Made by a program: the position numbers and the translations under genes. This document shows positions 1,528 to 30,046 of a stretch of 64,000 nucleotides of DNA, piece by piece. Source of the stretch: an uncultured Parcubacteria group bacterium (GTDB lineage: Bacteria > Patescibacteriota > Patescibacteriia > UBA9934 > CAMTUG01); the NCBI GenBank assembly GCA_947084965.1, contig CAMTUG010000001.1, positions 211,914 to 275,913 of the forward strand. The letters run 5' to 3'. Each line of letters starts with the position of its first letter. The stretch's first letter is position 1. A model generated the notes under the pieces. The model was not told the origin of the DNA and did not search any database. It saw only the letters and a list, made by a program, of their open reading frames with translations.

Positions 1528-1580
1528 AACGATGTGTTGCTCCCCGTCCACGTGAGTTCTCCAGGGTGAAGGTGCGTTGC

Positions 1581-1856: not shown

Positions 1857-1906
1857 GGGGGACTCCTGGTGGTTGTTGGGGGAGAGTTGCGGTTGCCGTG
1901 AAGGGC

Positions 1907-1973
1907 GTCCGCGAAAGAGACAGCGAGCGATGCTCGTAAGCTCTTTTGCGGAGGGAAGTGAGTGCACTTCCCG
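1907..1973 (-). promoter_or_regulatory. conserved intergenic element B2 (copy of B1)
   Basis: GTCCGCGAAAGAG...GCGAGCGATGCTCGTAAGCTCTTTTGCGGAG is shared with 715-760. It is followed by a compensatory hairpin GGGAAGTGagtgCACTTCCC. Confidence 0.5.
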
Positions 1974-2036
1974 CCTAGCGTCGTTAGCGCGAATGAACGA
2001 TTCAGTCCTCCTAGTTGGTTTGTTGTTGGTTGTCAT

Positions 2037-2666
2037 CTAGGCCGCCGCCTGCTTCTTGTTCGCCGCGTAGCACGTCTCGCAGAGGATCCCGCGGGCGGGG
2101 TCGAGCAGCTTGCTCTCCTTGCCCATGACCTTGGCGGTGACGAACCCGCCGCAGGTGGTGCAGGAGTAGTGGGCGTGCTTCTTCCCTTCCAGCTTGCAGT
2201 GGCAGGTCTTGTCCTCCGGCAAGATCACGGCGTTGAAGACGATCTTCGCCGGGGCCGCGGCGAGCTTGTGGGCACGGGCGGCGTCGCGGCGCTTCTTCTC
2301 GTCCCGCACGTAGCGCCACCAGGCGATCTCGTGCTGGTCCTGCACGTGCGGCGGCTCCTCGTCCTCGTCGACCATCTCCTCGTCCTCGTCGGCCTCGCTC
2401 TCGCTGCCGCCGATGAGGTCGACCCAGGACTCGACCCCCGGGCTGCGGTAGACGAGGTCGGCCGGGCCCCAGGCGCTGAAGCCCTCGAGGTCCGAGTCGT
2501 CCAGCCCCTGCTCCTGGGCCAGCGCGAGGATCTCGTCGAGCTGGTCCTGGTTGAAGGTGCGGGACTTGTTCCCGATCTCGTACATGTCGCGCTCGGTGGC
2601 GCGGTCGTTCATCTCGCCGGCGTAGCGGGCGGCGGCGAGGGCGACGACGTTCTGGGGCTTGGTCAT
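2037..2666 (-). CDS. hypothetical acidic protein with C-terminal Cys-rich zinc-ribbon-like motif (CHC..H..C..C...C..C)
   Basis: ATG at 2666 with an AAGGAG SD. Asp/Glu-rich middle (EADEDEEMVDEDEE). C-terminal KTCHCKLEGKKHAHYSCTTCGG...CETC. Confidence 0.55.
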   Translation of the reverse strand: MTKPQNVVALAAARYAGEMNDRATERDMYEIGNKSRTFNQDQLDEILALAQEQGLDDSDLEGFSAWGPADLVYRSPGVESWVDLIGGSESEADEDEEMVDEDEEPPHVQDQHEIAWWRYVRDEKKRRDAARAHKLAAAPAKIVFNAVILPEDKTCHCKLEGKKHAHYSCTTCGGFVTAKVMGKESKLLDPARGILCETCYAANKKQAAA

Positions 2667-2835
2667 GGGATGCTCCTTCGGCTCAGTACGAGCAGATGGT
2701 TGTCGGTGGTGTCAAAGAGACCGTTTGGTAGTGGTCAGCTATCCGCAGCAGGGGTTGCTTGCCGGAACTCAGGAGCGAATCAAGGATTCGCTTCTAGGTT
2801 CCGGGTAGGGTGCGAGTGCACACCCTCCCGAGAGA

Positions 2836-3057
2836 TCACTTGGCCGCGATCGAGTCGCGGACGTTGGTCATCGGGACGCCGCCGTGGCGCCAGACGATGA
2901 CCTTGGCCGCCAGCTGGGGGTTGCCGCCGTAGCTGACGCGGCTGGTCGTGGCCCAGCTCATGGCGATCATGGCGATGGCGAAGCCGATGGTGATGAGGGT
3001 GGCGATCTGGATGTTGTTGGGGTTCGAGGCGTACTCGATGATCTGGGTGATGTCCAT
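2836..3057 (-). CDS. small membrane protein (73 aa)
   Basis: ATG at 3057 with an ACGGAG SD. Nearly every codon ends in G/C. Hydrophobic core IATLITIGFAIAMIAMSW. Confidence 0.5.
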   Translation of the reverse strand: MDITQIIEYASNPNNIQIATLITIGFAIAMIAMSWATTSRVSYGGNPQLAAKVIVWRHGGVPMTNVRDSIAAK

Positions 3058-3205
3058 GTGGGCTCCGTGGAAGAGGCATGGTCGTGTGACCGCGCCGGGG
3101 TGGGTGTTCTGGGCGGTCGGTGCCCAGACCGGAGAGGAGAAGAGATTCTCCGCTTTGGTCTGGGCCGGGCGCGCGTAGTTCGCACCCGGTCCGGAGAAGT
3201 GCGGC

Positions 3206-3433
3206 CTAGGCGGCCGCGGTGGTGTAGATCTCGATGATGCAGGCGGCGGCGGCCTGCTCGTGGGTGTCGGCGTCGATCTCGCCGATCACATGGCGGAGCT
3301 CGAGCTCCTCGGCCGCCATCCACCCGGAGGTCTCGCCGTCGGTCGCCTCGTCGCAGGCCACGAGGTCGAGGTCGATCGCGGGGGTGGCGTGGCAAGTGCA
3401 CTTGGCGGGGAAACAGGGGATACAGAGATACAT
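3206..3433 (-). CDS. small Cys-rich hypothetical protein (75 aa)
   Basis: ATG at 3433 with an AAGGAAG SD. N-terminal CIPCFPAKCTCH cysteine cluster. Confidence 0.4.
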   Translation of the reverse strand: MYLCIPCFPAKCTCHATPAIDLDLVACDEATDGETSGWMAAEELELRHVIGEIDADTHEQAAAACIIEIYTTAAA

Positions 3434-11452: not shown

Positions 11453-12589
11453 ATGTTCATCGCGCCGTTCATCCTTTCGCTCTTCGCTCCGGCCTTCGCC
11501 GAGGAGCCCGTCCCCGTCGTCTCGCCGGTCGCCGCGCCCAAGACCTACATCCTCGTCGCCGGGACGAGCGAGTACCAGAACGCGCCGGACCTGCCGGGCG
11601 TCGAGGGGGCGACCAAGGACTGCCAGACGATCGGTGCTCGGCTGATCGAGGTCGGGTTCACCACCGAGCAGGTCACCGCGCTCTGCGGCGACAAGCTCAC
11701 CAAGCCGGCGGTCGTCGAGGCGGTCAACACCCTGGCGCCCCGACTTGTTGCCGGGGACACCTTCGTCGTCGTCTGGATCGGCCACGGCGGCCAGGACCCG
11801 AAGGACGAGACCAAGAAGTACTGGCAGGGCTACGACGGCAGCTTCGTCGTCGATCCGGCCGCCCCGACCAACTACTTCACGACCGGGATCACCCCGACGA
11901 TGCTCACGAAGGCGATCAAGAGCAAGACGCCGGCCGGGACCCCGATCGTCCTCATGACCGACACGTCGGACAGTGGGTCCTACAACGGGATCCCGCTCAG
12001 CGGGCCGGTCGCCGACACCTTCGAGAAGGAGGTCTACATGATCTCCCCGGGGATGGCGCTTGGCAAGTCCGGGGCGCTCACGAAGTCGTTCATCGGCTGT
12101 CTCGAGCCCCGCATGCGCTACGGCGTCGCCGAGGAGCACACCGCGATCGAGGTCCAGGCCTGCATGTCGAACGGTCTCAGGGCCAGCAACATCGAGTCGT
12201 GGCTTTCCAGCGCGGACTGGGATACGATCACCACGCTCATCTGGTTCCCGCCGCTTCCGCCCGCGCTTCCCAGGCCACTCCCTGAGCAGACGGCCAGGAA
12301 GCCGTCGACGGTGAAGCCGGCGATGCGCTGGGGCGGTGTCGCCCTCGCCGTCATCGGTGGCGGTGGAGCAGCCGCGTCGTACCTCCACGCGGACGGCATC
12401 GCGGGACAGATCGCTGACGAGAACGGCGTCGTCGATCCCCGGGACGCGGCCGCGCTCGAGGAGTACAACCTGTTCAAGACCCTGACCTACGTCGGCTACG
12501 GTGTCGTCGGCCTCGGTGCGATCAGCTTCGGCGGTTCGCTCGTCGTCGCTCCCGCCCCGACCGGTGTCACGGTCAGCGGAACGTTCTAA
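11453..12589 (+). CDS. caspase-fold (peptidase C14-like) domain protein with signal peptide and C-terminal TM segments; catalytic Cys position occupied by Ser
   Basis: YILVAGTSEY...DCQTIGARLIEVGF...VVVWIGHGG...PIVLMTDTSDSGS matches the caspase/metacaspase strand order with His retained. DTSDSG sits where D-A-C-H-S-G is expected. N-terminal MFIAPFILSLFAPAFA signal. Gly-rich hydrophobic C-terminus. About 68% GC. Confidence 0.55.
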   Translation: MFIAPFILSLFAPAFAEEPVPVVSPVAAPKTYILVAGTSEYQNAPDLPGVEGATKDCQTIGARLIEVGFTTEQVTALCGDKLTKPAVVEAVNTLAPRLVAGDTFVVVWIGHGGQDPKDETKKYWQGYDGSFVVDPAAPTNYFTTGITPTMLTKAIKSKTPAGTPIVLMTDTSDSGSYNGIPLSGPVADTFEKEVYMISPGMALGKSGALTKSFIGCLEPRMRYGVAEEHTAIEVQACMSNGLRASNIESWLSSADWDTITTLIWFPPLPPALPRPLPEQTARKPSTVKPAMRWGGVALAVIGGGGAAASYLHADGIAGQIADENGVVDPRDAAALEEYNLFKTLTYVGYGVVGLGAISFGGSLVVAPAPTGVTVSGTF

Positions 12590-12614
12590 CCGTTCCGACC
12601 TCTCTAACGTGAAG

Positions 12615-12650
12615 CCCCCGACTGCAGACGGCAGTCGGGGGTTCGCATTT
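12615..12650 (+). terminator. intrinsic terminator (CCCCCGACTGC agacg GCAGTCGGGGG + TTCGCATTTTGT)
   Basis: 11-bp perfect stem and a T-rich tail just 3' of the caspase-like gene. Confidence 0.6.
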
Positions 12651-12694
12651 TGTCCGAGGTCCGGAGAGCGAGTGGCGCGCTCCGGACCGTCTGA

Positions 12695-13528
12695 CTAGCG
12701 GAAGTAGAGGGTGTGGTTGGACGCCTTGGGGCGTTGGCCGGCCAGTCGGTCGAACTGGGTGGGGACGAATCCCCCCAGGTTGACCCCCTGGAGACGCAGG
12801 GCCGAGGTTGCGTCGACGTCGCCGACCAGCCAGGCGTTCCACAGCGACTCGGCGAAGTCGCCGCCGCGGGTGCGCAGGGCACTCTCGATCACGGGCCAGG
12901 CTTCGTCCGAGTGCCAGTGATCGAACGGCGTGTACTCCGGCGGGAAGGTTGCCGGGAACCCGAACAGGGCGCGGAACCAGTTGGGGATCGCGCGGCGGGT
13001 TGCGATCTCCTGGTTGCGGAGATCGACCTTGGTGCGGTTCTCGCTCCAGAAGTCGATCTCGATGAAGGGCGTGTCCGTATCGCCCCCCTTGCGAACCGGG
13101 CAGAAGAAGATGGAGAACCCCGCGCTCACCTTGGCGCCGCGAAGGATCAGGAGGTTGAGCAAGGGTTCGAGCCGGGCCTTCATGCCCTTCTCGTCTCGCA
13201 TCTTGTCCAGGATCTTCGGGTGCTTCGGTCCGGCGCTGATCACCCAGCTCCCGAGCGGCACGGGGCCGGTCGTCTTGAGATCTTCGAGCACCGCCCGGAC
13301 CTCGACGAGTGCCGGGACGGACACGGGCTTCTGCCGTTCGCGGAACGGGGTGAGGGTCACCCAGGGCAGGCTCGGGTCGACCTCGTCCTTGTCGATCACG
13401 CGGTCGGTGGGGAGACGCAGGACCCGGCTCTTGTTGTCCGGTCGGTCGATGTCCGGCGTCCGGATGAACGAACGCACTTCGGGTGCGCCCTTCTTGGGAA
13501 CGGCGAAGGGGAGAGATCTCTGGGCCAC
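12695..13528 (-). CDS. hypothetical protein (about 277 aa, high GC), likely GTG start
   Basis: Long GC3-rich frame. The first 35 residues of track ORF 12695..13633 lie in AT-rich promoter DNA. GTG at 13528 is preceded by GAGGT. No recognisable domain. Confidence 0.45.
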   Translation of the reverse strand: MAQRSLPFAVPKKGAPEVRSFIRTPDIDRPDNKSRVLRLPTDRVIDKDEVDPSLPWVTLTPFRERQKPVSVPALVEVRAVLEDLKTTGPVPLGSWVISAGPKHPKILDKMRDEKGMKARLEPLLNLLILRGAKVSAGFSIFFCPVRKGGDTDTPFIEIDFWSENRTKVDLRNQEIATRRAIPNWFRALFGFPATFPPEYTPFDHWHSDEAWPVIESALRTRGGDFAESLWNAWLVGDVDATSALRLQGVNLGGFVPTQFDRLAGQRPKASNHTLYFR

Positions 13529-13589
13529 GGCTACCTCGGGGTTAAGGGTTTGCACATGAAAGCATTTTTTCAAATGAACGTCAATGATT

Positions 13590-13647
13590 ATTGACAATTC
13601 GCTTATTTTCGTGTTAAAGAACCGTTGGCACATTCACGGAGGTCTAG
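13590..13647 (+). promoter_or_regulatory. AT-rich divergent promoter region with TTGACA box and GGAGGT SD for the kinase gene
   Basis: TTGACA at 13592-13597. GGAGGT sits 6 nt before the ATG at 13648. This is the only AT-rich stretch inside the high-GC island. Confidence 0.35.
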
Positions 13648-15366
13648 ATGCAAGAACACCCAACGTCGTTTGGCGAAGGACGCTACCGCGTCGAGCGGCT
13701 GATCGGCCAAGGAGGGATGGCCAGGGTGTACCTGGCCTACGACACCCGGAACCACCGACCGGTCGCGATCAAGGTTCCGAACCCCAACCTGCTCACCCCG
13801 GACAAGGTGGTGCACGTGCGGGCGCGGCACGACAACGAACGTGCGGTCCTCGGAATTCTGGTCCACCCGTTCGTTCCGGCGCTCTACGATCACGGTGAGG
13901 AGCCGTCGGGGAAGGAGAACAACCCGACCACCACGCCCTACATCGTCATGGAGTACGTGCCGGGACGCGACCTCGAAGAGTGTCGGACCGAGTTCGGCGC
14001 ACTGCCGCCTCGGGTCGTCTGTCACGCCATGCTCCAGGTCCTCTCGGTTCTGGCTCAGCTCCACGCCGACGTTCGCGGGATCGTCCACCGTGACGTCAAG
14101 CCGGCGAACATCCGTCTGCGTGCGGACAAGCTCGTCAAGCTGATGGACTACGGGATCGCCAAGGTGCATCGCACCAGGGGCTCTGCCGGCAAGACGATGT
14201 TCCAGCCCAACATGACCCGGAGCGATTCACCGATCGGCACCCGCGGGTTCATGGGGATCGCCCAGATCTCGATGGATGCGGACCTCGGACCGCGGGCGGA
14301 TCTCTACGGCGTCGTGGCCACGATGGTCGCGCTCCTCACCGGCAAGGACCGCGCACCTGATCTGTGGAACGTGAAGGGCGAAGTGCACACTGCGCTCACC
14401 GGTGTGCCGCGGATCCTGCGGCCGATCATCATCCGCTGTGCGAGCGAGGTGATCCCAGACAACCAGAAGGTCACCTCGGCCGAAGAGTGCGCGCGCCTGC
14501 TCGAGGCCCTGATCGCCAAGCTTCCGGAAGATGACAGCGATCGCTTCTGGAAGTGGTTCCGGAAAGAGGGGATGACGATCGTTCCAGACGTCCTCGTGCC
14601 GAGCTCCTGGCCCGGTGGCGACATCGATGAGCACCTGCGTGAACTCCCGTCGGTCGATCGCTTCGTCCCCGAACCCGCGGAAGCGGAAGGGGAACCGGCG
14701 GAGTTCGATGACGAGGGATCGGCCCCGGACGATGAGGAGTTCGTCCCGGCTCGTCGATCGCGAGTCCTGCCCTTCTTCGGAGGGGCGGCTCTGCTCGCGG
14801 CTCTCTTCGGACTCGGCGTCGTGTTCTGGGGTGACGAACCGAGCGTGGTGCAGGAAAGTCTCATGCCGGCTGTCGCGGCCCCATCGAGCGCGGCCGTCAT
14901 CGAGATCGATCGAAGGGATACCCAACCGTCCCTCACCAGGATCGCCACATCGGATCCTGCGCCTTCACCCCCGCCTGAATCGGTCGGCGGTGTCCCAGCG
15001 ATCAACACGCCGCCCACACCAGCCGAACAGACCGATCGTCCGAAGATCGATCGGCCGGTCCGCGATCGTGTCCCGGCAACCGTCACCCCTGCGCCGGTCG
15101 TCACCCCACCCCCTCCGATCCCGGCCCAGGCCCCTCCGGCTCCGGTCGAGGAAGAAGAGAAGGGCACGGTGCGTGTCACGGGCGGAGTTCCGGTGCGGCT
15201 CAAGAAGGGGGGAGCGATCTTCTCCGCCCCGGGCTCGGTCAAGCCGGGCACCTACACGGTCGAGGCACAGTTCGCCGACACCTACACCCCGCAGATGGAG
15301 ATCACCGTGAAGCCCGGGGAGACACGGACCGTCTCCTGCGACCGCGACTTCACGTCCTGCGAATAG
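13648..15366 (+). CDS. Hanks-type Ser/Thr protein kinase, single-pass membrane, with Pro-rich linker and C-terminal PEGA-like beta domain
   Basis: GQGGMARV (G-loop), VAIK, HRDVKPANIRL, DYG (DFG variant), one TM helix (VLPFFGGAALLAALFGLGVVFW), PAPxPPP-rich region, and a terminal KPGTYTVEAQF...TVKPGETRTV motif. Confidence 0.85.
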   Translation: MQEHPTSFGEGRYRVERLIGQGGMARVYLAYDTRNHRPVAIKVPNPNLLTPDKVVHVRARHDNERAVLGILVHPFVPALYDHGEEPSGKENNPTTTPYIVMEYVPGRDLEECRTEFGALPPRVVCHAMLQVLSVLAQLHADVRGIVHRDVKPANIRLRADKLVKLMDYGIAKVHRTRGSAGKTMFQPNMTRSDSPIGTRGFMGIAQISMDADLGPRADLYGVVATMVALLTGKDRAPDLWNVKGEVHTALTGVPRILRPIIIRCASEVIPDNQKVTSAEECARLLEALIAKLPEDDSDRFWKWFRKEGMTIVPDVLVPSSWPGGDIDEHLRELPSVDRFVPEPAEAEGEPAEFDDEGSAPDDEEFVPARRSRVLPFFGGAALLAALFGLGVVFWGDEPSVVQESLMPAVAAPSSAAVIEIDRRDTQPSLTRIATSDPAPSPPPESVGGVPAINTPPTPAEQTDRPKIDRPVRDRVPATVTPAPVVTPPPPIPAQAPPAPVEEEEKGTVRVTGGVPVRLKKGGAIFSAPGSVKPGTYTVEAQFADTYTPQMEITVKPGETRTVSCDRDFTSCE

Positions 15367-15456: not shown

Positions 15457-15531
15457 GCCGCAGTAGCTCAGTGGTAGAGCACCTCCATGGTAAGGAGGGG
15501 GTCTCGGGTTCAAATCCCGACTGTGGCTCCA
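15457..15531 (+). tRNA. tRNA-Thr (anticodon GGT)
   Basis: Cloverleaf GCCGCAG/ta/GCTCagtggtAGAGC/a/CCTCCatGGTaaGGAGG/gggtc/TCGGGttcaaatCCCGA/CTGTGGC/t/CCA. CCA is encoded. Confidence 0.85.
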
Positions 15532-15532
15532 T

Positions 15533-15568
15533 GAAAATAGATCAGAAGTTTCTGATCTATTTTCATTT
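15533..15568 (+). terminator. intrinsic terminator after tRNA-Thr (GAAAATAGATCAG aagtttc CTGATCTATTTTC)
   Basis: Perfect 13-bp stem with a T-rich 3' side. Confidence 0.7.
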
Positions 15569-15666
15569 AAGGGTGGGGATTTGAACCGTGGGAAAGGGGT
15601 ACGGGGAAAACGAACACGAGGGAGACCTGTTTGTGTTACAATTAAACAAAGGATGCATGAATATTT

Positions 15667-16677
15667 ATGAAAAAATCGACGCTTACGTATCTTAGTTTGT
15701 TGATCGTTCTTGGCCTGGCGATGGTTACAGGATTTTCTGTGATCAAGGATCGTTTTTTCACATCAGACAATTTGATCGCGGATAACACGAATGAGAGGGT
15801 GTTGAATGCCTTTAGTTGTAATAGCAGTCAAATGTTCATACCCCCGACAAGCGGAGAAGACTTAACGGAGATTCAATTGTATACCGCGCGAAGTGATGAT
15901 GGTGTTACTTTTGCAGATGAACGGGAGTTTATAAAAGGTGCGGGCGTACCAAGTGTGACGCAAGGTGAGGACGGAACGCTCTTTGCTGTTTTCAATTGGT
16001 TCCCATCCTATGCAGAAAATCCAGATTGCTATAACAAAATCGCCATGATGACTTCGAACGACGCTGGTGTTACATGGGACGGTCCGTTCGGTTTATTTAT
16101 CGAAGAGTTCCCGGACGATTATCAACTGCCTTATGATCCTACGATTGCACGAGACGCTGAGGGGAAATTTAGGATGTTTTTCACGACACATAAATTAGGT
16201 ATGGACGAGCCGTTTATTTACGGGAGTGCAGTATCTGAAGACGGTCTTCACTTTACTTATGACGGTATCGTATTTGAAAGTAAAGGTAATCATGTTGTGG
16301 ATGGCTCAGAAATATATTTCAACGGCAAGTGGATTATGATTGCCCCGCTCGCTAAGCAAAACGGCGAGGCCCTTCAGGCGACTTCCATTGATGGACGTTT
16401 GTTTGAGGTGGTGAATAGTAATCGGCCAAAACGCAGTATGTATTGGGTAGGAAATATGGTCGCACTTGCTGACGAAGTCCGTTTTTATGGTTCGTGCGGT
16501 GAAGAAACGGATCTTCGTGGACTTTGTTATAGTGCGACAACGGATGGGAATGTTTGGGATGATCCGGTCCTTACAAACGGTTACGCCGGTGATCCGGGGG
16601 TTGTATATCTGGATGATGGACAGTTCGTCATTATTTATGCAGAGCCTCGTGCGCCTGTCGTACCAATAGAACGATAA
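15667..16677 (+). CDS. secreted BNR/Asp-box beta-propeller protein (sialidase / glycoside-hydrolase-like), low GC
   Basis: Signal/TM N-terminus. S-x-D-x-G-x-T-W/F motifs (SDDGVTF, SNDAGVTWDG, SEDGLHF, TTDGNVWD). About 42-45% GC versus about 50% for the backbone. Confidence 0.6.
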   Translation: MKKSTLTYLSLLIVLGLAMVTGFSVIKDRFFTSDNLIADNTNERVLNAFSCNSSQMFIPPTSGEDLTEIQLYTARSDDGVTFADEREFIKGAGVPSVTQGEDGTLFAVFNWFPSYAENPDCYNKIAMMTSNDAGVTWDGPFGLFIEEFPDDYQLPYDPTIARDAEGKFRMFFTTHKLGMDEPFIYGSAVSEDGLHFTYDGIVFESKGNHVVDGSEIYFNGKWIMIAPLAKQNGEALQATSIDGRLFEVVNSNRPKRSMYWVGNMVALADEVRFYGSCGEETDLRGLCYSATTDGNVWDDPVLTNGYAGDPGVVYLDDGQFVIIYAEPRAPVVPIER

Positions 16678-16890: not shown

Positions 16891-16891
16891 G

Positions 16892-17017
16892 ACCGGTCCG
16901 CAGATTTTGGTCCAGGACTGTGTTGCGGGGCCCTGTCGTCTTGTCGCCGTACGTTTCAGTACGGCTCCTGCGCCGACGTCCCGCGCCTTGTCCTGAACAC
17001 AAAATCTGCAGACCGGC
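16892..17017. repeat. 18-bp inverted repeat (ACCGGTCCGCAGATTTTG / CAAAATCTGCAGACCGGC) enclosing a GC-rich 90-bp spacer between tRNA-Tyr and tRNA-Thr
   Basis: Arms match 16/18. The spacer GC is much higher than the flanks and contains a CCGTACGtttcaGTACGG hairpin. Confidence 0.5.
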
Positions 17018-17027
17018 GCTAAAACAG

Positions 17028-17101
17028 GCCGGCGTAGCTCAGTGGTAGAGCAACACTTTTGTAAAGTGAAGGTCGTCGGTTCAAATCCGACCGTCGGCTC
17101 C
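17028..17101 (+). tRNA. tRNA-Thr (anticodon TGT)
   Basis: GCCGGCG acceptor pairs with CGTCGGC. D-arm GCTCagtggtAGAGC. Anticodon loop tTTGTaa. T-arm GTCGGttcaaatCCGAC. CCA encoded. Confidence 0.8.
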
Positions 17102-17157
17102 AGAGTATTGACGAAATCAGCCCGTTTTGTTACTATCCCAGCACATAAATTTGCCAT

Positions 17158-17313
17158 ATGCCACAGGATCAACGCGCCAAAATGGAATGCACCGACTGCA
17201 AACACGTTGGCTATAACACCACTCGCAACAAAAAGACGCTTAAGGAACGCCTTCAGCTCTCCAAGTTCTGCAAGTGGTGCCGTCACCACACGACGCACAA
17301 AGAAACGAAATAA
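17158..17313 (+). CDS. rpmG: 50S ribosomal protein L33
   Basis: 51 aa, MPQDQRAKMECTDCKHVGYNTTRNKKTLKERLQLSKFCKWCRHHTTHKETK, with the L33 zinc-ribbon pattern C..C...C..C. Below the ORF-track length cutoff. Confidence 0.8.
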   Translation: MPQDQRAKMECTDCKHVGYNTTRNKKTLKERLQLSKFCKWCRHHTTHKETK

Positions 17314-17376
17314 TCAAAAGCCGCCTCCGGGCGGTTCTTGATTTTCCCCCAAGGAGTCGGTATAGTTCCGCCGCAT

Positions 17377-17451
17377 AGGGGTGTAGTGAAATGGTTATCA
17401 CTAGGGTCTCCAAAACCCTCATTCAGAGTTCGAATCTCTGCGCCCCTGCCA
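17377..17451 (+). tRNA. tRNA-Trp (anticodon CCA)
   Basis: AGGGGTG acceptor pairs with CGCCCCT. Anticodon stem-loop AGGGT-CTCCAAA-ACCCT. T-arm CAGAGttcgaatCTCTG. CCA encoded. Confidence 0.8.
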
Positions 17452-17602
17452 AAAATTCCGACGGCTTTTGCCGGCGGGATTTTTGATAAGGCAGAGATTC
17501 GAACGGAGGGATGGTAAGGGAGGATACTCCCTTACATGTCGGGGGTGACAGGAGCGAAGCGACGACCAGAGGGGCGGAAGCCCCTCTGGGTTCGGTGAGA
17601 TT

Positions 17603-17618
17603 CTCTGCGCCCCTGCCA
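17603..17618 (+). repeat. direct duplicate of the 3' end of tRNA-Trp (CTCTGCGCCCCTGCCA), about 150 bp downstream of the tRNA
   Basis: Exact 16-nt match to 17436-17451. An inverted tRNA-like fragment (GGCAGAGATTCGAAC, 17491-17505) and three perfect hairpins (17619-17640, 17641-17668, 17691-17717) lie around it. Confidence 0.6.
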
Positions 17619-17690
17619 CGTCGGTCGCGACCGACGTGGCCTGCCACTTGCGTTGGGTGGCAGGCCTCCGGGGTCGTGCCAACATGATTC

Positions 17691-17717
17691 AAAAGAACGC
17701 CGAAAGGCGTTCTTTTG
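17691..17717 (+). terminator. hairpin AAAAGAACGCCgaaaGGCGTTCTTTT
   Basis: Perfect 11-bp stem with a GAAA tetraloop and a U-tail. Confidence 0.6.
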
Positions 17718-17846
17718 TTATGGTAGAATAATGTTGGTATATGGTACTTCTACATCCTACAAAGCCAGAAGGATACGAACTACGATAGCCTGGCACCATA
17801 ATTTGAAATCCATTAGAAGACTCTGCGATACTATTTTCCTACCTGT

Positions 17847-18473
17847 ATGCCAAGACTTCTCGTTAGCGAACCGATGCCGTGGGCGATCATGGTCTTTGGA
17901 TTCCTGAGCATCATTCCGTTGTTGACTACAGCACTGTTCGGTTGGCGCACGTTCGATGCAGCATCAGCGATGCTCCGCGGAGAGGAGCGCTTGCAGACGA
18001 TCTGTCTCGACGTTGCCCCTCCGCCGATCTGTATGACCACTGAGGCCTATCCGGCATTCCTGCCAAGTGCGGTGGGGCTTGTGATAAGCATTCTCGGCCT
18101 CGTTGCTTGTTGGGTGTTGGCGGCTAGAAAGCGGGCTGTGTGGATGGATGGAGACGGAACGATGCGCGTGACGTGGGGCGACGGTCGTGGCCCTGTGGTG
18201 TTGCGTCGGTTTTTGCTTGAAGCGCTGAGTGACTTTTCTGTCACGCGCGAGCGGCGCGTAACCCTTTCACCTATTGTTGGCACGAGCGTCACGCGCGTGG
18301 GACGAGCACCAGATCGTTGGCGACTGCGTGCGACGTTCAAAGGCGGAACGGCAGACTTGGGGAGCTACCCGAGTGAGGAAGCGGCGAAGAAGATCGTCCG
18401 TCTGGTCACATCAGTGCGGAACAATGAGCAGGACGATGAAAGCGGCATCTGGTATTATGGTCGTTCAAATTGA
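17847..18473 (+). CDS. hypothetical membrane protein (two N-terminal TM helices plus soluble domain)
   Basis: TM helices WAIMVFGFLSIIPLLTTALFGW and AVGLVISILGLVACWVLAA. No recognised catalytic motif. Confidence 0.5.
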   Translation: MPRLLVSEPMPWAIMVFGFLSIIPLLTTALFGWRTFDAASAMLRGEERLQTICLDVAPPPICMTTEAYPAFLPSAVGLVISILGLVACWVLAARKRAVWMDGDGTMRVTWGDGRGPVVLRRFLLEALSDFSVTRERRVTLSPIVGTSVTRVGRAPDRWRLRATFKGGTADLGSYPSEEAAKKIVRLVTSVRNNEQDDESGIWYYGRSN

Positions 18474-18481
18474 AACGATGT

Positions 18482-18691
18482 ATGGAAACAGATCAACCAG
18501 CACAAACGATCGATGACCTGATGGACGCAGGGACGGGTTTGGTCATCGAGGTTAGTCGACTGGATGCGGCGCTCGCCAAGCGACTTGGGGAGCATCTGTT
18601 TGCCTGGCGCTCACTTGCTTGCCGCGGGTTCGGTGTTTCCGAAGATGGTTTAGATGTGTTACGTAGGCATTTCGATCGTAGGGGTGAATAA
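18482..18691 (+). CDS. small hypothetical protein (about 70 aa)
   Basis: Track ORF 18470..18691. A start at METDQ avoids overlap with the upstream gene. Support is weak. Confidence 0.3.
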   Translation: METDQPAQTIDDLMDAGTGLVIEVSRLDAALAKRLGEHLFAWRSLACRGFGVSEDGLDVLRRHFDRRGE

Positions 18692-18712
18692 AATAATTGT
18701 ACATCGAAACGT

Positions 18713-19180
18713 ATGCGCACGTTTACGCGTAAACCGTGGCTTGTGAAAACGGATCGACTGTTCTATGGACTTTTTCCTGCGTTCATCGGGATCGGGCTTA
18801 TCGCAGCTGCATGGGGGTTGCAGGGCACGGCCGGGGTGCCGGCGGTGGCCATTTGGCTCTGGGGTACGATGGGGATCTTATTGATCGGATTTGGAGGTTG
18901 GCTGTATAAGCGCGCTCCTGTCCCGACGCGGATCAGTATTGATGAAACTTCCGTACGCATTGAGTATGATCGTATGACACCTGTCATCATTCCGCGGAGC
19001 GCCGTGACCAATGTGAATATAGGAATGGTGCGCACCCAGTCTAGCAACAACCATATAACGTATCGTGAAAACGGGATCGTAAAGCACGCGATTCTCCTTA
19101 GTGGGTATCGTGACGACGAAGGGAAAAGATACAGTGGGCGGGCTCTTGTCAAAGAATTGCGCTCAATCCTCCTTTCATAA
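18713..19180 (+). CDS. hypothetical membrane protein (two TM helices plus PH-like soluble domain), architecture parallel to 17847..18473
   Basis: TM helices LFPAFIGIGLIAAAWGL and IWLWGTMGILLIGFGGWLY, followed by a beta-rich domain. Confidence 0.5.
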   Translation: MRTFTRKPWLVKTDRLFYGLFPAFIGIGLIAAAWGLQGTAGVPAVAIWLWGTMGILLIGFGGWLYKRAPVPTRISIDETSVRIEYDRMTPVIIPRSAVTNVNIGMVRTQSSNNHITYRENGIVKHAILLSGYRDDEGKRYSGRALVKELRSILLS

Positions 19181-19211
19181 AAAAGATCTCTCGGGTGAGA
19201 GATCTTTTTTA
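19179..19211. terminator. bidirectional intrinsic terminator AAAAAGATCTCTCgggtgAGAGATCTTTTTT
   Basis: Perfect 13-bp stem with A/T runs on both sides, between convergent genes. Confidence 0.7.
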
Positions 19212-19224
19212 TGATGGATGTTTG

Positions 19225-19773
19225 TTAGTCGATCTTGAGGGTGGGTGCCACGGCCGTGCGGATGACGTCGCAACCGTTTTCTTTGCCCGCTGAGTAACCG
19301 CTTCCACAGCTGCCGGCGAACAGGAGTGTTGATGCACTGACGGCGGTCGGATAGAGCGTCCCACCCGCGGCACAGATATCAAAGTCTTGTTTAAAACTCT
19401 CAAGGGTTCCGTAAGCCGGAACGTTCGGTGCGAGAGTGACGGTCCAGGTCGGCATTTCATAGTCGCCGGCGATCGTAAACGTGTATCGTTGTTGAGCTGT
19501 TCCAGCGAAGAGGCGTTCGAGGTCTAGATAATACGAAGCATCGCGGGCATAGCCACATTCTTCGGCTTGGGTATAGAGCGTTTCTGCATCGATCAATGAT
19601 GCATCGGTTCCATCTGGCAGGATCGTCTCTGTGGTCACGGAGATCTTCCCATCCGCCGGGAGAGTGTATTGGAGCGGAGAAAGACTCCAAGGCTCTGATG
19701 TTGGCGCCGACGATCCGGCACACCCCCCGCCGACCAAAAGGAGGGCGATGCTTAGGATAAGAAGATTGCGCAT
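19225..19773 (-). CDS. hypothetical lipoprotein
   Basis: Signal peptide with lipobox LLLVGGGC. Secreted-type composition. Six Cys. Confidence 0.55.
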   Translation of the reverse strand: MRNLLILSIALLLVGGGCAGSSAPTSEPWSLSPLQYTLPADGKISVTTETILPDGTDASLIDAETLYTQAEECGYARDASYYLDLERLFAGTAQQRYTFTIAGDYEMPTWTVTLAPNVPAYGTLESFKQDFDICAAGGTLYPTAVSASTLLFAGSCGSGYSAGKENGCDVIRTAVAPTLKID

Positions 19774-19899
19774 AGCAGACAGAATTTACATGACAATACC
19801 TTTAGGATACCCCAAAACGTGATGGGGGCAAAAGGTCCTTTTTCTAATGACAGGATAACGCGTTCCTAGTATACTTACGCTATTCTTTCTTTTGCCTTT

Positions 19900-22800
19900 A
19901 TGTTTAAGCGGTTCGTCTGTCTGCTCGGGGTCCTTTCAGCAGTTTTTATTTTTGCCGGGGCAGAACCGGTGCACGCCGCGGCCTACACCTGGGATGGCGG
20001 GGGATCGACGAATAATTGGAGCGATTGTTTGAACTGGTCGACTAATGTCTGTCCGGTCGGAGCTGATACCGTAACCTTTGATGCCACCAGCACCAAAAAC
20101 GCTTCGATCGATGCCTCATGGGGTGGTTCAATTACGGGAATCACGATCGCCTCGGGTTATTCAGGAACGGTCTCTGTTGATCGTTCATTGGCGGTTAGTG
20201 GCGCATTTAGCATTGCCGCTGGCGCCTTTAACGGCACATCACAAAGCATAGACTTCAACGGGTCAGTGACCATTTCCGGAGGAACATTCACGGCTTCTTC
20301 TGGCTCGATGACTATGGCCGGCGGGTTTACCCATACAGCCGGGGGAACGTTTGCTCACAATAACGGTTCCATCACCATGGACGGCAGTACAGCGTTCACA
20401 TGGAATGTCGCTGTCACCGAGGAACTCTATAATCTCACCATCAACAACACCAGTACATCGGCGATCACTGTTGCGAGCGGCGACACATTGAATGTTAATA
20501 ACACCTTGACCTTCACTGACGGCTCGATCGCGACGGGTACGATCGCCGGTAAAGGGGCGACGATCGTCGTCGACGCTGGATGGGGAACGGGTTCAAACTC
20601 GAGCGGGACGTTGCTTGTGAACGGTGGCGGTGCGCAAACAGTCACCATCGCCCCACAGTCGAACGCCTCATTTGAAGCCTTTGATCAGCTCACCTTGAAC
20701 AACGCCTTAGCATCGATCACAGGGACAGGCGGCGCGGGTGCCATCGGTCTGGATAAGATTACCCTGACCGCTGGAACATTGAACGTTACTGGGTACACCT
20801 TGATCGCCAACGAAACGATGACGATTAACGGCGGTACCTTGACGCTCGGCACGACGGGGACATCGACGATCGGTTCAACCTTCAATCTTTCTGCTGGCAT
20901 CTTCAACGGCGGTTCTGCGACCGTTGATTTTAATGGCACTGTGACGATCTCTGGCGGGACGTTCAACGCATCTTCCGGTTTGCAGACGATGGACAGTAAT
21001 TTCACCCATACTGCGGGCGGGACGTTCAATCATGGCAACGGCTCGATCACGATCGATGGGAGCACGGCCGTGACCTGGGACGTGTCGACCACGGAAAATC
21101 TGTATAATCTCACGATCAACAATACGAGTACGTCAGCGATGACGGTGGCAAGCGGGGATACTCTGAACGTCAACAATAACGCAACATTTACCGATGGTGG
21201 GATTATCACCGGAACGATCGCGGTCAAAGGGCCTGCCGTCTCGATCGGGACAAACTTCGGTTTTTCTGCTTTCTCCAACGGTACTTTGACGATCAACGGT
21301 TCCGGAGCGCAGACGGTGACGATGGCGGTGCTGGCGGGTGCGGGTTTTGAGCCGTTTGATCAGATTATCTTGAATAACGCTGCGGCCACCTTTGGCGGAA
21401 CAGGCGCGGCTGGCACATTAGCTTTCGATAAAGTGACGGTTACTGCCGGTGTCTTTGACATGACTGGCTACACATTTTCGGCCAACGAAGCGGTCGTGGT
21501 CAATGGGGGGACGATGACCATGGGAACGTCTGGAACAAACACGTTTAGCGGCACATTCAGTCTTTCTTCGGGGACGTTCAACGGTGGGTCCGGGAATGTG
21601 AATGACTTTAACAGCACCATCACGATTTCCGGTGGAACGTTCAACGCTTCATCGGCCACAACGACTGCGGCTGGTGACTACACTCACTCGGCAGGCGGAG
21701 TGTTCAATCACAACAATGGGTTGTTTACCATCGACGGATCCTCTGGCTCGACGATTGATATTGGTACCACCGAGACGTTTTACGACTTGACGATAAATAA
21801 CAGCGCCACGACGGCGTTAACGCTCACGAGCGGAACGACACTGAATGTCAATAATGCATTGACGCTGACGGATGGAGGTTGGCTCTCGGGTACGATCGCG
21901 GCTAAAGGGCCAACGACGACGATCGGGGCCGGCTTTGGTTTCGCGACGATCGCCGCTGGTACGCTGACCATTAATGGCGTCGGTGTCCAATCGGTGACGA
22001 TGGCCGCTCTTGCCGCCGGGTTTGAACCCGTTGATCAGCTGACGATCAACAACGCCTCAGCAACCTTGACGGGCACTGGGGCGTCCGGGGTGTTGGCTTT
22101 TGATAAGGTGACGGTCACAGCGGGTTTGTTTGACGCCACGGGATATACGGTTTCCATCAATGAACCGGTTATCATCAACGGCGGTACCATGACCATGGGT
22201 AACTCCGGCACGAATACGTTCAACGGTACCTTCGCTATTTCTTCCGGAACGTTCAACGGCTCTGCTGCGACTCTGGATTTCAACAGTACCGTTACTGTGT
22301 CTGGGGGTATCATGAATTTCTCCTCAACCGTGACGTCGCTGGCCGGGACGTACACCCACACTGCCGGCGGCACGGTCAACTATAACGGCACGACCTTGAC
22401 CATCGATGGGGGCAGCGGCTCAACGTGGGACGTCTCGACCAACGAGACGGTACCGGCTTTGACCGTGGCTAAAACAGGAAGCGCGACATGGACGATCGCG
22501 ACGGGTGACACGATGATCGTTACGGGCACAACGCTTCTTACGGACGGCGAACTTTCTACGGGTGCGATTTCCGCCCGTGGCGACGTAACCGTTTCTTCCA
22601 CCTGGGACGGTGGGGCGGGGACATCCGTTCTCAGCTTGGATGGCTCGGGCGTTGTTGTGATGACCCACACCAACGGCGGCAACAACACGGAGCCAGCAAA
22701 TACCTTGATCGTGAATAATGCCAACGCGACGGTCAACATGCCGGCGACAGGCGCTTCATTTGTCTGGGGGTTGGATATTCGTGCTGGTGTGGTCAATGTC

Positions 22801-25800
22801 AATGGTGGTGATCTGACTGTGGGGAGTACCTATACACAGTCCGGCGGGACATTCAACGGCGGAGCGGGGAGTGTGACTACTTCCACCACGTACACCCTTT
22901 CCGGCGGGACGTTCAATGCGCCAAGCGGCACCTTGAATCTTGTTGATGACTTCACCCATACCGCTGGTGGAACGTTCAATCATAACAACGGCTTGGTGAA
23001 GACGATCAATGCCGTGGATCTTACCTTTGACTTCAACGTCTCTGAGACGTTCTATAATTTTGAATCTTCAAAAACAACGAACTGGCAGACGATCATCACT
23101 TCTGGGGATTCGTTGATCGTCCTGAATACAGCGACCTTGACTGACGGTCGAATCATGACCGGAACACTTGAAATCAAAAATACGTTATCGATCGCATCGA
23201 CGTACGATTACGGCAATGCGAGCCTAACGTTTTCGGGAACGGTCGACCAAACATTCACACTTCCTTCAGGGCAATCTGCTTCCTGGGACATGCCGGCGCT
23301 TACGGTTAACAAGGCTTCAGGTACGCTGACGTTCGGTTCGGATGTGACGTTGGATTGCGGGGGCACGAGTTGCAACCTCGTTTTGCAACAAGGGGTGCTT
23401 TCTCTTAACGGGTTTGGCCTGCGAGTTAATGATTTCTCGATCAGTAATGGAACGTTTATTTCCGGAGCGAGCACGGTTGATATCGATGACGACTTGACGA
23501 TTACTGGCGGAACGTTTAACGCCACGACAGGGACGACCATCATCGGCGGGGATTTTACCCATACCGCCGGTGGGGTGTTCAATCATAATAACGGGACGGT
23601 GGAGTTCGATACGTCAAATGATCAGACCATTAACGTCAATGTTAACGAAACGTTTTATACGGTTCGCATCAGTAAAAACGGTTTTCAACAGACGATTACT
23701 GCGGGGGACACGATTACGGTTCTCGGCAACCTATTGTTGACGGACGGTCGTTTTGGAACAGGAACGATTGATATGCAAGGCGCGGCGACGACCATCGCTT
23801 CAACTTATGACCCCAGTGATGTCACATTGAAGTTCACCGGTACGGCAGCACAGACGCTTGACTTGACCGGAGCGGCCGCCGTATTTGATGGGCCAGTAAC
23901 GATCGATAAGCCTTCTGGCGAAGTTGCTTTGCTCTCTGCTCTGACGATGGACACAAGCAGTCGCACCTTGACGTTGCAATCCGGAACGCTGAATCGGAAC
24001 GGGTTCGCTTTGACTGTCCACCACTACACCCAGACAGGCGGGACGTTCTCAAGTAGTGCGGGCAACGTTGACGTGAACGGTACGTTTACGCTTTCTGGGG
24101 GTACGTTCTCTGCCTCATCTGGAACGACGTTTTTTGGCGGTGCTTATACCCATACCGCCGGTGGAACGTTCGATCACAATAACGGTCGGGTGGAATTTGA
24201 CACCGCGGTGGACATTACTGCAGACGTTATCGGATCGGAGACGTTTTATGATCTGGCCATTACCAAAGCTGGGAATCTGGTCACGTTGGGGGCGGGCGAC
24301 ACGTTGATCGCCACCGGCGATCTGTATCTCACAGATGGTCGTTTTGGTGGCGGCACGATCGAAGCACGCGGCAACGTGACCGTGGCCTCGACGTTTGATA
24401 TTGGTAATGCTGCCTACACGTTTACCGGGAGCGCTGTTCAGACCTTTACTCTCGGAGTTGCTGCCAACATCGACGGCGACGTCACTGTGAACAAGAGCGG
24501 CGGATCGGTGGTACAGGTCGGAACGCTTACCCTGAACGCCGCATCACAAGATCTGACGATCGTTTCCGGAACGTATGATTTGAACGGCTCCAATCTCACT
24601 GTGAACGGCAGTAGCGGTACGTTAGTTGTACAGAATGGGGGTGTGCTTCAGCTTCAAGGTGGAGAAGTGGTCACTCTGAATGTCAGTAACCCGACGTTCC
24701 AGGCCGGAAGTTTGGCTCGCTACACCGGAACGGTCGGCCCGTATACCCTCAAGAACTGGACGTACAGATCGATCACGGTCGACGGAGGGGCAGCATCTGT
24801 TTTTGCTCTGCCAGGGGCGCTTTCTCTCCCTGCAGATCTGACGATCACTTCTGGAATCGTAAGTTTGGGGGGCAATGCGTTGACCGTTTCAGGAACGTTC
24901 TCAAATGACGGCACATTACGATTACGCGGGAACGAAACGGTGACGCTCACCAACGATGCTGATTCTGGAACGGTGGAATATGTCGGCGACGGCGATGCTG
25001 CGGCCGATGCCTATGTTCTTCAGAACTGGCCGTACTACCATCTCACCTTGGCCTTTGTGGACGCCCTTGATTCCGCGTCAGCCGGTGGAACACCGCTCGA
25101 CATCAATGGATCGTTTACGCTCAGCGCGGGGACGTTTACCGCTCCAGCGACGATGACCGTAGCTGGAAATTTTGCCCATAGTGGTGGGGTGTTCACGCAT
25201 AACAACGGTACGGTGGTTCTTGATGGGTTGAATCAGACCGTCTCAGGGACAACGACCTTTAATCACTTCACAAAATCTGTTAGTTCAGCAGCGACCCTGA
25301 CTCTTCCGGCAACAGCGACCCAGACGTTTGTCGGGACGATGACGCTGACGGGTGCGAGCGGGCAGCGTCTTTCCTTGCGCAGTTCTACGCCGGGGGTGCA
25401 GGCGCTGATCGATCCACAAGGGACTCGGACCGTTTCCTATCTCGACGTCCAAGACAACAATAACGCCAATGCAACGATGATCGTCTGCTCGACGGGGTGT
25501 GTTGAAGGCACCAACGTGACAAATTGGTCGTTCACCACGCCAGGGATCACAGTCGGAGCCATCTCCGGTGACACCACTGAAGCGGGGGGTACCGCCACCT
25601 TCACCGTCGTTCTCGAATCTGAACCAACCGCAGACGTGACGATCGGCGTGAGTTCTTCGGACGTAACCGAAGGGACGGTTGATCCGGCCTCCCTCACCTT
25701 TACTTCGCTCAACTGGGATACTCCACAAACGGTCACGGTTACTGGCACCGATGACTTCGTGATTGATGGCAGTGTTGTCTTCTCGATCGTTCTTGAGCCA

Positions 25801-28557: not shown

Positions 28558-28559
28558 TT

Positions 28560-29279
28560 ATGGGCATTGCTCTGAAGATCGATACTCTCCAGAAAACGTA
28601 CAAAACCGGGACGCAGGCGCTCAAAGGTGTGTCCTTTACAGTGCAAGCCGGGGAGATGTTCGCCCTGCTTGGGGCGAACGGGGCAGGGAAGACGACCTTG
28701 ATCGGCGTGCTGTGCGGGCTGGTTGCCAAAACAGGCGGCAAGGCCGAGGTATTCGGGATCGATATCGATGCGGAGCCGGAAGAGGCCCGCCGCCTGATCG
28801 GCGTTGTGCCGCAAGAATTCAACTTCAATATTTTTGAGCGGGTCATTGATATCGTTGTCGATGCTGCCGGGTATTACGGCGTGCCGCGTTCGGTCGCCAC
28901 TCCGCGAGCAGAGAAACTACTGAAAGATCTCGGGCTCTGGGAAAAGCGTCACGTTGCTTCGCGTACGCTCTCGGGGGGAATGAAGCGTCGATTGCTGATT
29001 GCACGTGCCTTGGTGCATCAACCGAAGTTGTTATTGCTCGACGAACCTTCCGCGGGTGTGGACGTGGAGTTGCGTCGTGGGATGTGGGAGTTCATCAGCA
29101 GCTTGAATGCGCAGGGGACGACGGTGATCCTTACGACGCATTATTTGGAAGAAGCAGAAAAGCTGTGCAAGCGCGTGGTGATTTTGAAGCAGGGTGTCGT
29201 TGCCAAGGAAGGGGAGATCGCTGCGCTTGTTGCCGCGTCCGGAGAAAAGAATCTTGAAGATTTCTATTTAAGCGTATGA
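28560..29279 (+). CDS. ABC transporter ATP-binding protein (ABC-2 exporter type)
   Basis: Walker A GANGAGKTT, signature LSGGMKRR, Walker B LLLDEPSAGVD. ATG at 28560 follows the giant gene's stop. The stop overlaps the permease start. Confidence 0.85.
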   Translation: MGIALKIDTLQKTYKTGTQALKGVSFTVQAGEMFALLGANGAGKTTLIGVLCGLVAKTGGKAEVFGIDIDAEPEEARRLIGVVPQEFNFNIFERVIDIVVDAAGYYGVPRSVATPRAEKLLKDLGLWEKRHVASRTLSGGMKRRLLIARALVHQPKLLLLDEPSAGVDVELRRGMWEFISSLNAQGTTVILTTHYLEEAEKLCKRVVILKQGVVAKEGEIAALVAASGEKNLEDFYLSV

Positions 29280-30046
29280 TCCGTCCTTCCTTGGTGGGTG
29301 CGGCGACGATCTTCCGCAAAGAAACGGTACGCGTGTTTCGTATTTGGACGCAGACGATTCTACCATCCGTTGTTTCTCAGACGCTCTACTTTGCGATCTT
29401 CGGCGGGATCATTGGTTCAAAGATCGGGGAAGTCGGCGGAGCAAGTTATGCCGCTTTTCTCGTTCCTGGTCTGATCATGATGTCATCGATCACCAACGCT
29501 TTTAGTAACGTCGCGAGTTCGTTTTTCGGTGCTAAGTTTCAACGCTCGATCGAGGAAATTCTCGTTTCGCCGATGAAGCCGTGGGCCGTGCTGGCAGGAT
29601 ACATCTCCGGTGGGGTCATGCGCGGCATGGTCGTCGCCTTGGCGGTTTTTCTCGTCTCGATCGCCTTTGTTCACCCTACAGTTGCTCACGCAGTTCCACT
29701 GATCTTCTTTATCTTCATTACCTGTCTCATCTTCTCTCTTCTCGGGTTTTTGAACGGGATGTTCGCGCGCAAGTTTGATGACGTGGGAATCGTCCCGGTT
29801 TTCGTGCTCACGCCGCTCACATATCTCGGCGGGGTATTTTACAGCTTGGATTCACTGCCGTCGTTCTGGCGCTCCCTGTCCTACGTCAATCCGATCGTCT
29901 ATATGATTGATGGGTTTCGTTACGGGTTCGGTGGTGTTGCCGCAACGTCGGTGCTTGCAAGCGCCGTTGTGCTGACTCTTGTCGCTGTCATTCTTGTCGT
30001 GATCAACCTTACATTGCTACGTCGCGGAATCGGCCTCAAATCATAA
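29276..30046 (+). CDS. ABC-2 family transporter permease
   Basis: Six predicted TM helices. Translationally coupled to the ATPase (ATGA overlap). Confidence 0.75.
   Translation: MIRPSLVGAATIFRKETVRVFRIWTQTILPSVVSQTLYFAIFGGIIGSKIGEVGGASYAAFLVPGLIMMSSITNAFSNVASSFFGAKFQRSIEEILVSPMKPWAVLAGYISGGVMRGMVVALAVFLVSIAFVHPTVAHAVPLIFFIFITCLIFSLLGFLNGMFARKFDDVGIVPVFVLTPLTYLGGVFYSLDSLPSFWRSLSYVNPIVYMIDGFRYGFGGVAATSVLASAVVLTLVAVILVVINLTLLRRGIGLKS

Follow-up and report, generated by a model that had tools for sequence, protein, structure and literature searches.

Background and overview

The RtT RNAs of Escherichia coli lie in the distal 178-bp repeats of the tyrT locus (Bosl & Kersten 1991, as cited in PMC4986893). 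They have been described as RNAs released from the transcripts of tRNA operons, with a link to the stringent response and to limitation of amino acids (PMC4986893; bioRxiv 10.1101/2024.07.17.603846). That integration leaves a complete tRNA copy at one end of a kilobase-scale element and a partial copy at the other is well documented, with element sizes of 9–23 kb in the cited cases (PMC9897764). Here, the tRNA-Trp(CCA) gene in a 64-kb stretch of genomic DNA from an uncultured Parcubacteria group bacterium (hereafter the window) is found to be followed by a non-coding, hairpin-dense trailer (17452–17720), which contains an exact direct copy of the tRNA 3' end and an exact inverted copy of part of its T-arm. 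The trailer resembles RtT in architecture and is tentatively read as locally generated from the tRNA. Shuffled sequences, the loci of relatives and control tRNAs were used as backgrounds for the comparisons.

Anatomy of the tRNA-Trp trailer

Searches of the window showed that the 16-mer CTCTGCGCCCCTGCCA occurs at exactly two sites, at the end of tRNA-Trp (17436–17451) and downstream of it (17603–17618), and none of 100 shuffles contained any match to it. A preliminary description of this DNA had reported these 16 nt as a duplication of the tRNA 3' end. The duplication is confirmed and is in fact longer, as the full exact repeat covers 17 nt (17435–17451 and 17602–17618) and 19 of 20 positions are identical when the repeat is extended to 17432–17451 and 17599–17618 (copy 1 and copy 2). 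The repeat has a period of 167 bp, with 151 bp between the copies. The repeated segment spans the T-loop to the CCA end, and the identity breaks off exactly after the CCA. A GTTCG motif is located 5 nt 5' of copy 2 (GTTCG-gtgag, then copy 2). Further occurrences of the 16-mer, which might have marked it as a generic repeat, were absent: no third copy was found in the window, even with a 12-mer and one mismatch.

An inverted piece, GCAGAGATTCGAAC (hereafter anti-T), is positioned between the two direct copies and starts 40 nt past tRNA-Trp. Described previously as an inverted tRNA-like piece, it is an exact reverse complement (14 of 14 nt) of tRNA-Trp 17428–17441, with the T-loop and the 3' strand of the T-stem as its template. 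The 17-nt direct copy and the 14-nt inverted copy both derive from tRNA positions 52–76 and from nothing else. A terminator-like hairpin (T1) directly follows the tRNA and is separated from anti-T by ATAAG. Anti-T and its template are arranged near-symmetrically about T1, with spacers of 8 and 5 nt.

The order of the trailer is T1, ATAAG, anti-T, hairpin 1, a G-rich stretch, hairpin 2, copy 2, a palindrome, a long hairpin and a second terminator-like hairpin, T2 (Table 1). The three hairpins listed in the preliminary description are all present, and two others (17514–17535 and 17566–17589) as well as T1 had been missed. The left arm of the long hairpin repeats CCTGCCAC of the tRNA 3' end. T2 has the same format of A-tract, stem and T-tract as other terminators in the window. 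Perfect hairpins with a stem of at least 9 bp are concentrated in the trailer, where 17514–17717 (204 nt) holds 5 of the 17 found in the window, whereas 2.3 are expected from shuffles of the entire window. Folding of 17486–17618 gave a predicted energy of −69.1 kcal/mol (z −5.8 vs. shuffles). The z values for 17377–17725 and 17619–17725 are −11.9 and −7.1, and the predicted fold of the former is dominated by a perfect 14-bp duplex between anti-T and the T-arm.

Comparison with the RtT RNAs of E. coli

The tyrT locus of E. coli (NZ_AP018488.1) contains three annotated RtT small RNAs, which score 121–134 bits against RF00391. Each of them (~130 nt) terminates exactly with the last 19 nt of tRNA-Tyr including the CCA, and the repeats have a 178-bp period. 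In the closing helix of RtT, an upstream GGGGAAGGAU is paired with the AUCCUUCCCC of the tRNA copy, and the acceptor/CCA tail remains unpaired. The element in the window closely parallels this arrangement. It is located 3' of a tRNA gene and co-oriented with it, has a length of ~130 nt and a period of 167 bp, ends by repeating exactly the last 17 nt of the tRNA including the CCA (19 nt in RtT), and involves no integrase. Its 5' segment is complementary to the copied T-stem/acceptor part and could close the structure with a single-stranded NCCA tail. The analogous closing helix (17491–17497 with 17602–17608, 7 bp plus an extension) was predicted at −63.9 kcal/mol compared with −69.1 kcal/mol for the minimum free energy structure, indicating that this closure is possible but is not the energetically preferred one. 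The parallel with tyrT/RtT, like the anatomy of the trailer and its statistical significance, is a direct observation. However, the element differs from RtT in that it has no RF00391 covariance match, is a single unit rather than a tandem array, follows a tRNA for Trp in another lineage, is separated from the tRNA by T1 and has perfect stems.

Sequence comparisons showed a local likeness between the G-rich stretch (17539–17565) and RtT copy 1 (1424–1445 of the extracted E. coli locus), with 21 of 23 aligned positions identical around the core GGAGCGAAGCGACGA and an extension by eye to ~23 of 27. The match has a z of 4.8, none of 300 shuffles reached its score, and 2 of ~4,350 unrelated control segments scored as high, corresponding to an empirical p of ~5e-4 per segment in a repetitive GCGAAG-type context. 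As this short match and a second, weak one are not collinear, and no covariance-model match was found, the likeness at the sequence level is only suggestive and could be coincidence.

A parallel case at tRNA-Thr(GGU)

A similar arrangement is observed at tRNA-Thr(GGU), where the terminator hairpin is followed by TAAGG and an inverted T-loop piece, GGGATTTGAACC, 45 nt past the tRNA. The order is thus the same at tRNA-Thr(GGU) and tRNA-Trp: a terminator, TAAGG and an inverted piece of the T-loop. The longest inverted downstream match among ~90 control tRNAs of other loci is 9 nt, compared with 12 and 14 nt here, with the caveat that the tRNA-Thr piece consists mostly of the generic GGTTCAAATCC motif and fits both Thr tRNAs equally. 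The two post-terminator segments are weakly alignable, as 14 of 500 shuffles aligned equally well. The presence of a second inverted piece argues for a local process or function and not for a single integration event.

In addition, a single long, irregular hairpin is predicted for the whole 137-nt spacer between tRNA-Tyr and tRNA-Thr(UGU) (16891–17027), with −71.5 kcal/mol and a z of −6.6. Inverted repeats of 17 nt (16893–16909 and 17000–17016) close this hairpin, which may act as a processing stem. Thus, structured flanks recur at the tRNAs of this genome. An open reading frame (ORF) between tRNA-Thr(GGU) and tRNA-Tyr (15667–16677) has a low GC content at third codon positions (GC3) of 0.42, a weak sub-threshold BNR match and a probable signal peptide, judged by eye. 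It was probably inserted into the tRNA cluster, since tRNA-Thr(GGU) and tRNA-Tyr are directly adjacent in the relative L012.

Relatives and the position of secE and nusG

A scan of genome contigs with a 25-nt T-arm/acceptor pattern yielded three loci, comprising L012 and the more distant L010 and L011, and a metagenome scan with GAWTCTCTGCGCCCCTGCC yielded 20 loci. The tRNA-Trp 3' end is common to the metagenomic loci L030, L025 and L027, and L030 is 74% identical to the window over tRNA-Thr, rpmG and tRNA-Trp (17025–17453). All three metagenomic loci have a T1-format terminator hairpin directly after the CCA, and the hairpins of L030 and L027 differ by compensatory changes. A second tRNA-end copy was found in none of the 20 loci, in which the GATTC-type matches are other tRNAs or chance. 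The relatives searched contain neither a second tRNA-end copy nor an anti-T piece nor anything similar to 17452–17725, and no homology between the trailer and their trailers was found (z ≤ 0.8).

The 3' flank of tRNA-Trp is variable among the relatives, which carry HicA/HicB-like or GIY-YIG genes there. The 7.6 kb past tRNA-Trp in L027 encode HicA, a likely HicB-like ORF (no Pfam match), a HAD hydrolase, an AAA ATPase and PPDK, and contain no secE or nusG. In L012, the same tRNAs are arranged differently and no secE follows tRNA-Trp; a different hairpin cluster comes after the tRNA there, and then a GIY-YIG-like gene (named from its translated sequence). Before its terminator, the L012 trailer contains perfect or near-perfect zero-loop palindromes, GCCAACGCTAAGCGTTGGC and GGCCAGCTAAGCTGGCC, the sequences of which are unrelated to the window hairpins.

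The preliminary description had taken the missing secE–nusG pair after tRNA-Trp as a sign of displacement from this site. Pfam scans of ~50 window ORFs detected no secE or nusG. No relative examined (L030, L025, L027 and L012) has the pair after tRNA-Trp either, so that its absence is, judging from the loci compared, ancestral in the clade and not due to an insertion here. Relatives with the same arrangement were the outcome that the preliminary description itself had named as refuting its claim. Where the whole clade is without that linkage, its absence is no evidence of insertion.

Origin of the trailer

Quasi-palindrome formation and template-switch duplication at hairpins are established mutational mechanisms. 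The reading favoured here, although at less than even odds, is that of a locally generated, tRNA-derived, hairpin-rich trailer with an RtT-like architecture. Probably, the tRNA 3' end was partly duplicated, or copied by template switching, at DNA able to form hairpins, in the same type of event as that behind the E. coli tyrT distal repeats and not in one leaving integrase-derived attachment (att) sites. Consistent with template switching, the inverted copy is near-symmetric about T1, the same geometry recurs at the second tRNA terminator, and the region is dense in perfect palindromes. No integrase, island or compositional anomaly was found, which supports a local origin. However, the two hairpin spacers (8 vs. 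5 nt) are not complementary to each other, and further steps would be needed to account for a direct copy at a distance of 151 bp and for the unique sequence in between.

Transcription, processing and any function of the trailer are, like the duplication mechanism, proposed from its anatomy. Read-through of T1 would give a transcript with a putative RtT-like RNA of ~130 nt, in which the 5' anti-T segment could base-pair either with the T-stem strand of copy 2 or with the tRNA itself. The 3' end of this RNA would be the ...CUCUGCGCCCCUGCCA end of the tRNA, at which the enzymes of tRNA 3' processing could cut, and the unit would be terminated by T2. If this RtT-like reading holds, trailer RNAs with tRNA 3' copies would exist outside enterobacteria, on other tRNAs and independently built, and would offer a second system for asking what such RNAs do. 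If the trailer is a mere relic, it would be an ordinary case of tRNA gene ends copied and scrambled.

Several observations weigh against the local, RtT-like reading. The element has no homologue in any relative or collection searched, and so neither covariation nor conservation supports it. Its perfect stems hint at a young or DNA-level origin. RF00391 (threshold 45 bits) gave no match at E ≤ 10 in either 5 kb or 291 nt. The sequence between the inverted and the direct copies copies nothing local, and a simple template switch does not explain it. An att site would likewise show identity up to exactly the CCA. T1 looks efficient and separates the tRNA from the element, and a consensus scan detected no promoter-like site between T1 and T2, which makes transcription of the trailer doubtful. 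Taken together, the strength of T1, the missing internal promoter, the perfect stems and the absence of conservation weigh against a functional role.

Integration and excision as an alternative

The preliminary description interpreted the locus as an integration/excision scar. According to this interpretation, an element targeting tRNA-Trp would have recombined in the T-loop-to-CCA segment, leaving attL in the tRNA and attR at 17599–17618. The element would later have been almost wholly deleted, with ~151 bp left, comparable to a minimal cis-mobilizable remnant. Such a degenerate att scar is a serious rival, although it is considered rather unlikely, and the data support an integrase scar weakly.

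The direct repeat from the 3' part of the target tRNA (17 nt exact, 19/20 extended) is as expected of an att pair, the T-loop-to-CCA segment is a typical crossover segment of integrases, and the identity stops exactly at the CCA. The combination of one complete tRNA and one partial 3' copy, in direct orientation and reaching from the T-loop to the 3' end, matches att sites and orphan tRNA fragments and is a documented outcome of integration (PMC9897764). As at such sites, the downstream content of the locus varies among relatives, with toxin–antitoxin or GIY-YIG genes in this position. A pair of 208-aa and 69-aa ORFs downstream of the trailer adjoins a RhuM/Fic-like gene (assigned from sequence motifs) in the locus L035, and the gene past the parallel tRNA-Thr site has a foreign GC3 of 0.42 and is missing between the same tRNAs in L012. 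The flank is indeed variable, yet nothing links it to an integrase.

However, Pfam scans of ~50 ORFs over the 64 kb, covering all but a few short ones among those of at least 70 aa, detected no integrase, recombinase or transposase. Element-sized cargo is absent, as 151 bp separate the copies, compared with 9–23 kb in the documented cases (PMC9897764), and so is a further distal repeat. The preliminary description had suggested checking 17847–19180 for atypical composition or a second att-like repeat, and neither was observed. The GC content of this region (0.547) equals the window mean, and its tetranucleotide distance lies at the 31st percentile, indicating native composition. The 16-mer occurs in eight viral contigs, none of them in a tRNA context and in a number of the order of magnitude expected by chance, so that no viral attP was found. 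No match was obtained in viral scans for hairpin 2, for the palindrome or for either anti-T piece, nor by phage blastn.

Comparison with possible empty sites showed relatives with the T1-format hairpin directly after the intact tRNA and none resembling 17619–17720, although these relatives are distant (74%). The hairpin in the relatives weakly suggests T1 as the ancestral flank, whereas canonical integration places the ancestral flank after the distal copy. In addition, the inverted T-arm copy is not predicted by an att scar, and together with the second inverted piece after tRNA-Thr it is not expected from a simple one. Thus, the tRNA-derived repeat beyond chance and the variable 3' flank stand from the original interpretation, but no integrase, element-sized insert, foreign composition or phage match accompanies them. 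A direct repeat of a tRNA 3' end alone is no evidence of an integrase event.

A possible functional RNA or assembly artefact

A lineage-specific structured RNA or cis-element acting on tRNA-Trp was also considered and is judged improbable. In a first version, anti-T would pair with the T-arm in read-through precursors and mediate processing or quality control by a double-strand-specific RNase. In a second, a tRNA-like minihelix (17541–17618, 78 nt) with a 7-bp acceptor-like stem, G and CCA would serve as a decoy. The very stable predicted structure, the perfect 14-bp duplex of anti-T with the T-arm, a unit bounded by two terminators, the second anti-T piece after tRNA-Thr and the presence of the acceptor-closed 78-nt shape are in line with such a function. 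However, the element is not kept in L030, L027 and L012, and no Rfam family match, second tRNA by relaxed ARAGORN or promoter was found for it. The mostly generic tRNA-Thr piece, which fits both Thr tRNAs, argues against it as well. The minihelix, closed by GGGGGTG/CGCCCCT (chance p of this pairing ~0.04–0.2), was rejected as unsupported: such an acceptor-like closure arises in 4–20% of shuffles (3.7% at a tRNA-like distance, 20% anywhere), and a second candidate 7-mer for the closure exists.

A still less probable extension is that the lineage has its own class of tRNA trailers, an independent analogue of RtT with an anti-T segment past the terminator at Trp and Thr and a full RtT-like RNA at Trp, acting in cis or released. 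Such trailers would pair with the T-arm of read-through precursors, or would be the source of small RNAs freed by tRNA-processing enzymes.

Amplification chimeras typically contain palindromes and inverted copies. It is nevertheless very improbable that the feature is due to chimeric or fold-back joining in this repeat-rich palindromic region of a metagenome-assembled contig. Of two Logan contigs of the same organism that were retrieved, L001 and L033, the latter starts mid-element at 17556, and no independent contig was retrieved over 17065–17555. However, L033, which was assembled from run ERR3478686, matches 17556–26283 at 100% identity, reproducing base for base copy 2, the downstream hairpins and the genes, and with them the right half of the feature, and the join is not at the repeat. 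The break at 17556 appears ordinary, as other Logan contig ends lie inside tRNA genes (15474 and 17064). The start of the contig inside the element could reflect a graph branch or a strain variant at the site.

Other identities

ARAGORN and Rfam call four true tRNAs only and recognise no tRNA-like domain, pseudogene or transfer-messenger RNA (tmRNA) in the trailer, and relaxed ARAGORN settings gave implausible intron-containing calls with no second tRNA and no tmRNA. Rfam has no family for the trailer at E ≤ 10, including tRNA, tmRNA, T-box and RtT. A T-box leader was rejected on the same search, and its UGGC-containing arm (17657–17664) is a chance-level 7-mer. Additional 7-mers copying or complementing the tRNA 3' end (17570, 17640 and 17658) are likewise at chance level. 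A minus-strand tRNA or pseudo-tRNA built from the anti-T pieces was rejected, since its T-stems would be unpaired, as judged by inspection of the sequence. Repetitive extragenic palindromes and miniature inverted-repeat transposable elements were rejected, as no hairpin recurs in the 64 kb and the possible 17-nt inverted arms match at only 13 of 17 positions, without flanking duplication. Exact protein matches are not on record for rpmG (two starts), the 208-aa ORF or a 58-aa ORF over the element.

Table 1. Features of the tRNA-Trp locus and of the parallel tRNA-Thr(GGU) site (window coordinates)
Feature	Position	Strand	Remarks
tRNA-Thr(GGU)	15457–15531		
Terminator hairpin of tRNA-Thr(GGU)	15531–15566	+	perfect, 17 bp
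Inverted T-loop piece	15576–15587	+	12 nt
Promoter-like site	17338–17366	+	TTGATT-17-TATAGT; candidate from consensus scan; directly 5' of tRNA-Trp
tRNA-Trp(CCA)	17377–17451	+	CCA encoded; ARAGORN; Rfam tRNA 60.8 bits
Copy 1 of direct repeat	17432–17451	+	last 17–20 nt of tRNA-Trp
T1 terminator-like hairpin	17450–17485	.	bidirectional; A-tract, 14/16-bp stem, TTTT loop, T-tract; abuts CCA
Anti-T piece	17491–17504	+	reverse complement of tRNA-Trp part
Hairpin 1	17514–17535	+	perfect, 9 bp; GTAAGGGAG gata CTCCCTTAC
G-rich stretch	17539–17565	+	contains GGGGGTG (17541–17547)
Hairpin 2	17566–17589	+	perfect, 10 bp, GGAA loop; CCAGAGGGGC ggaa GCCCCTCTGG
Copy 2 of tRNA-Trp 3' end	17599–17618	+	19/20; 17602–17618 exact
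Palindrome	17615–17640	.	perfect, 26 bp (13+13), zero loop; overlaps GCCA of copy 2
Sequence right after copy 2	from 17619		CGTCGGTCGCG
Long hairpin	17628–17676	+	core 10-bp perfect stem, 17638–17666
T2 terminator-like hairpin	17690–17717	.	perfect, 12 bp; CAAAAGAACGCC gaaa GGCGTTCTTTTG, then TTGTT
Promoter-like site of downstream ORFs	17803–17832		candidate from consensus scan
Three downstream ORFs	17847–19180	+	208/199, 69 and 155 aa; native composition; neighbours, not demonstrably part of the feature
Terminator of downstream ORFs	19175–19214		

Neighbouring genes

Searches of Pfam, PHROGs and PADLOC gave no match for the three ORFs downstream of the trailer. The 208-aa ORF has homologues with 63–42% identity, which are located in unrelated contexts without a tRNA. 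Comparison of 17847–18691 of the window with 1142–1937 of L035 showed that the membrane-type ORF (208 and 193 aa) and the 69-aa ORF form a conserved pair with identities of 63% and 69%.

A three-gene block just 5' of tRNA-Thr(GGU) (11453–15366) has a GC3 of 0.80–0.91, compared with ~0.6 elsewhere. The three products are a caspase-like peptidase C14, an unassigned minus-strand protein and a Ser/Thr kinase with PD-T4-6-like PADLOC matches, and no direct repeats flanking the block were found. Patches of high GC content (0.62–0.66) are located at 1–3300, 36200–37100, 47000–49100 and 50000–51100, and their longest ORFs mostly have no Pfam match. These patches may be foreign DNA or mis-called frames. 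The ORF at 36196–37071 has an acyltransferase Pfam match. The region 19900–28557 encodes a highly repetitive protein of 2885 aa with internal repeats of ~130–200 aa, which is probably secreted or exposed at the surface and adjoins an ABC-2 transporter pair (28542–30046).

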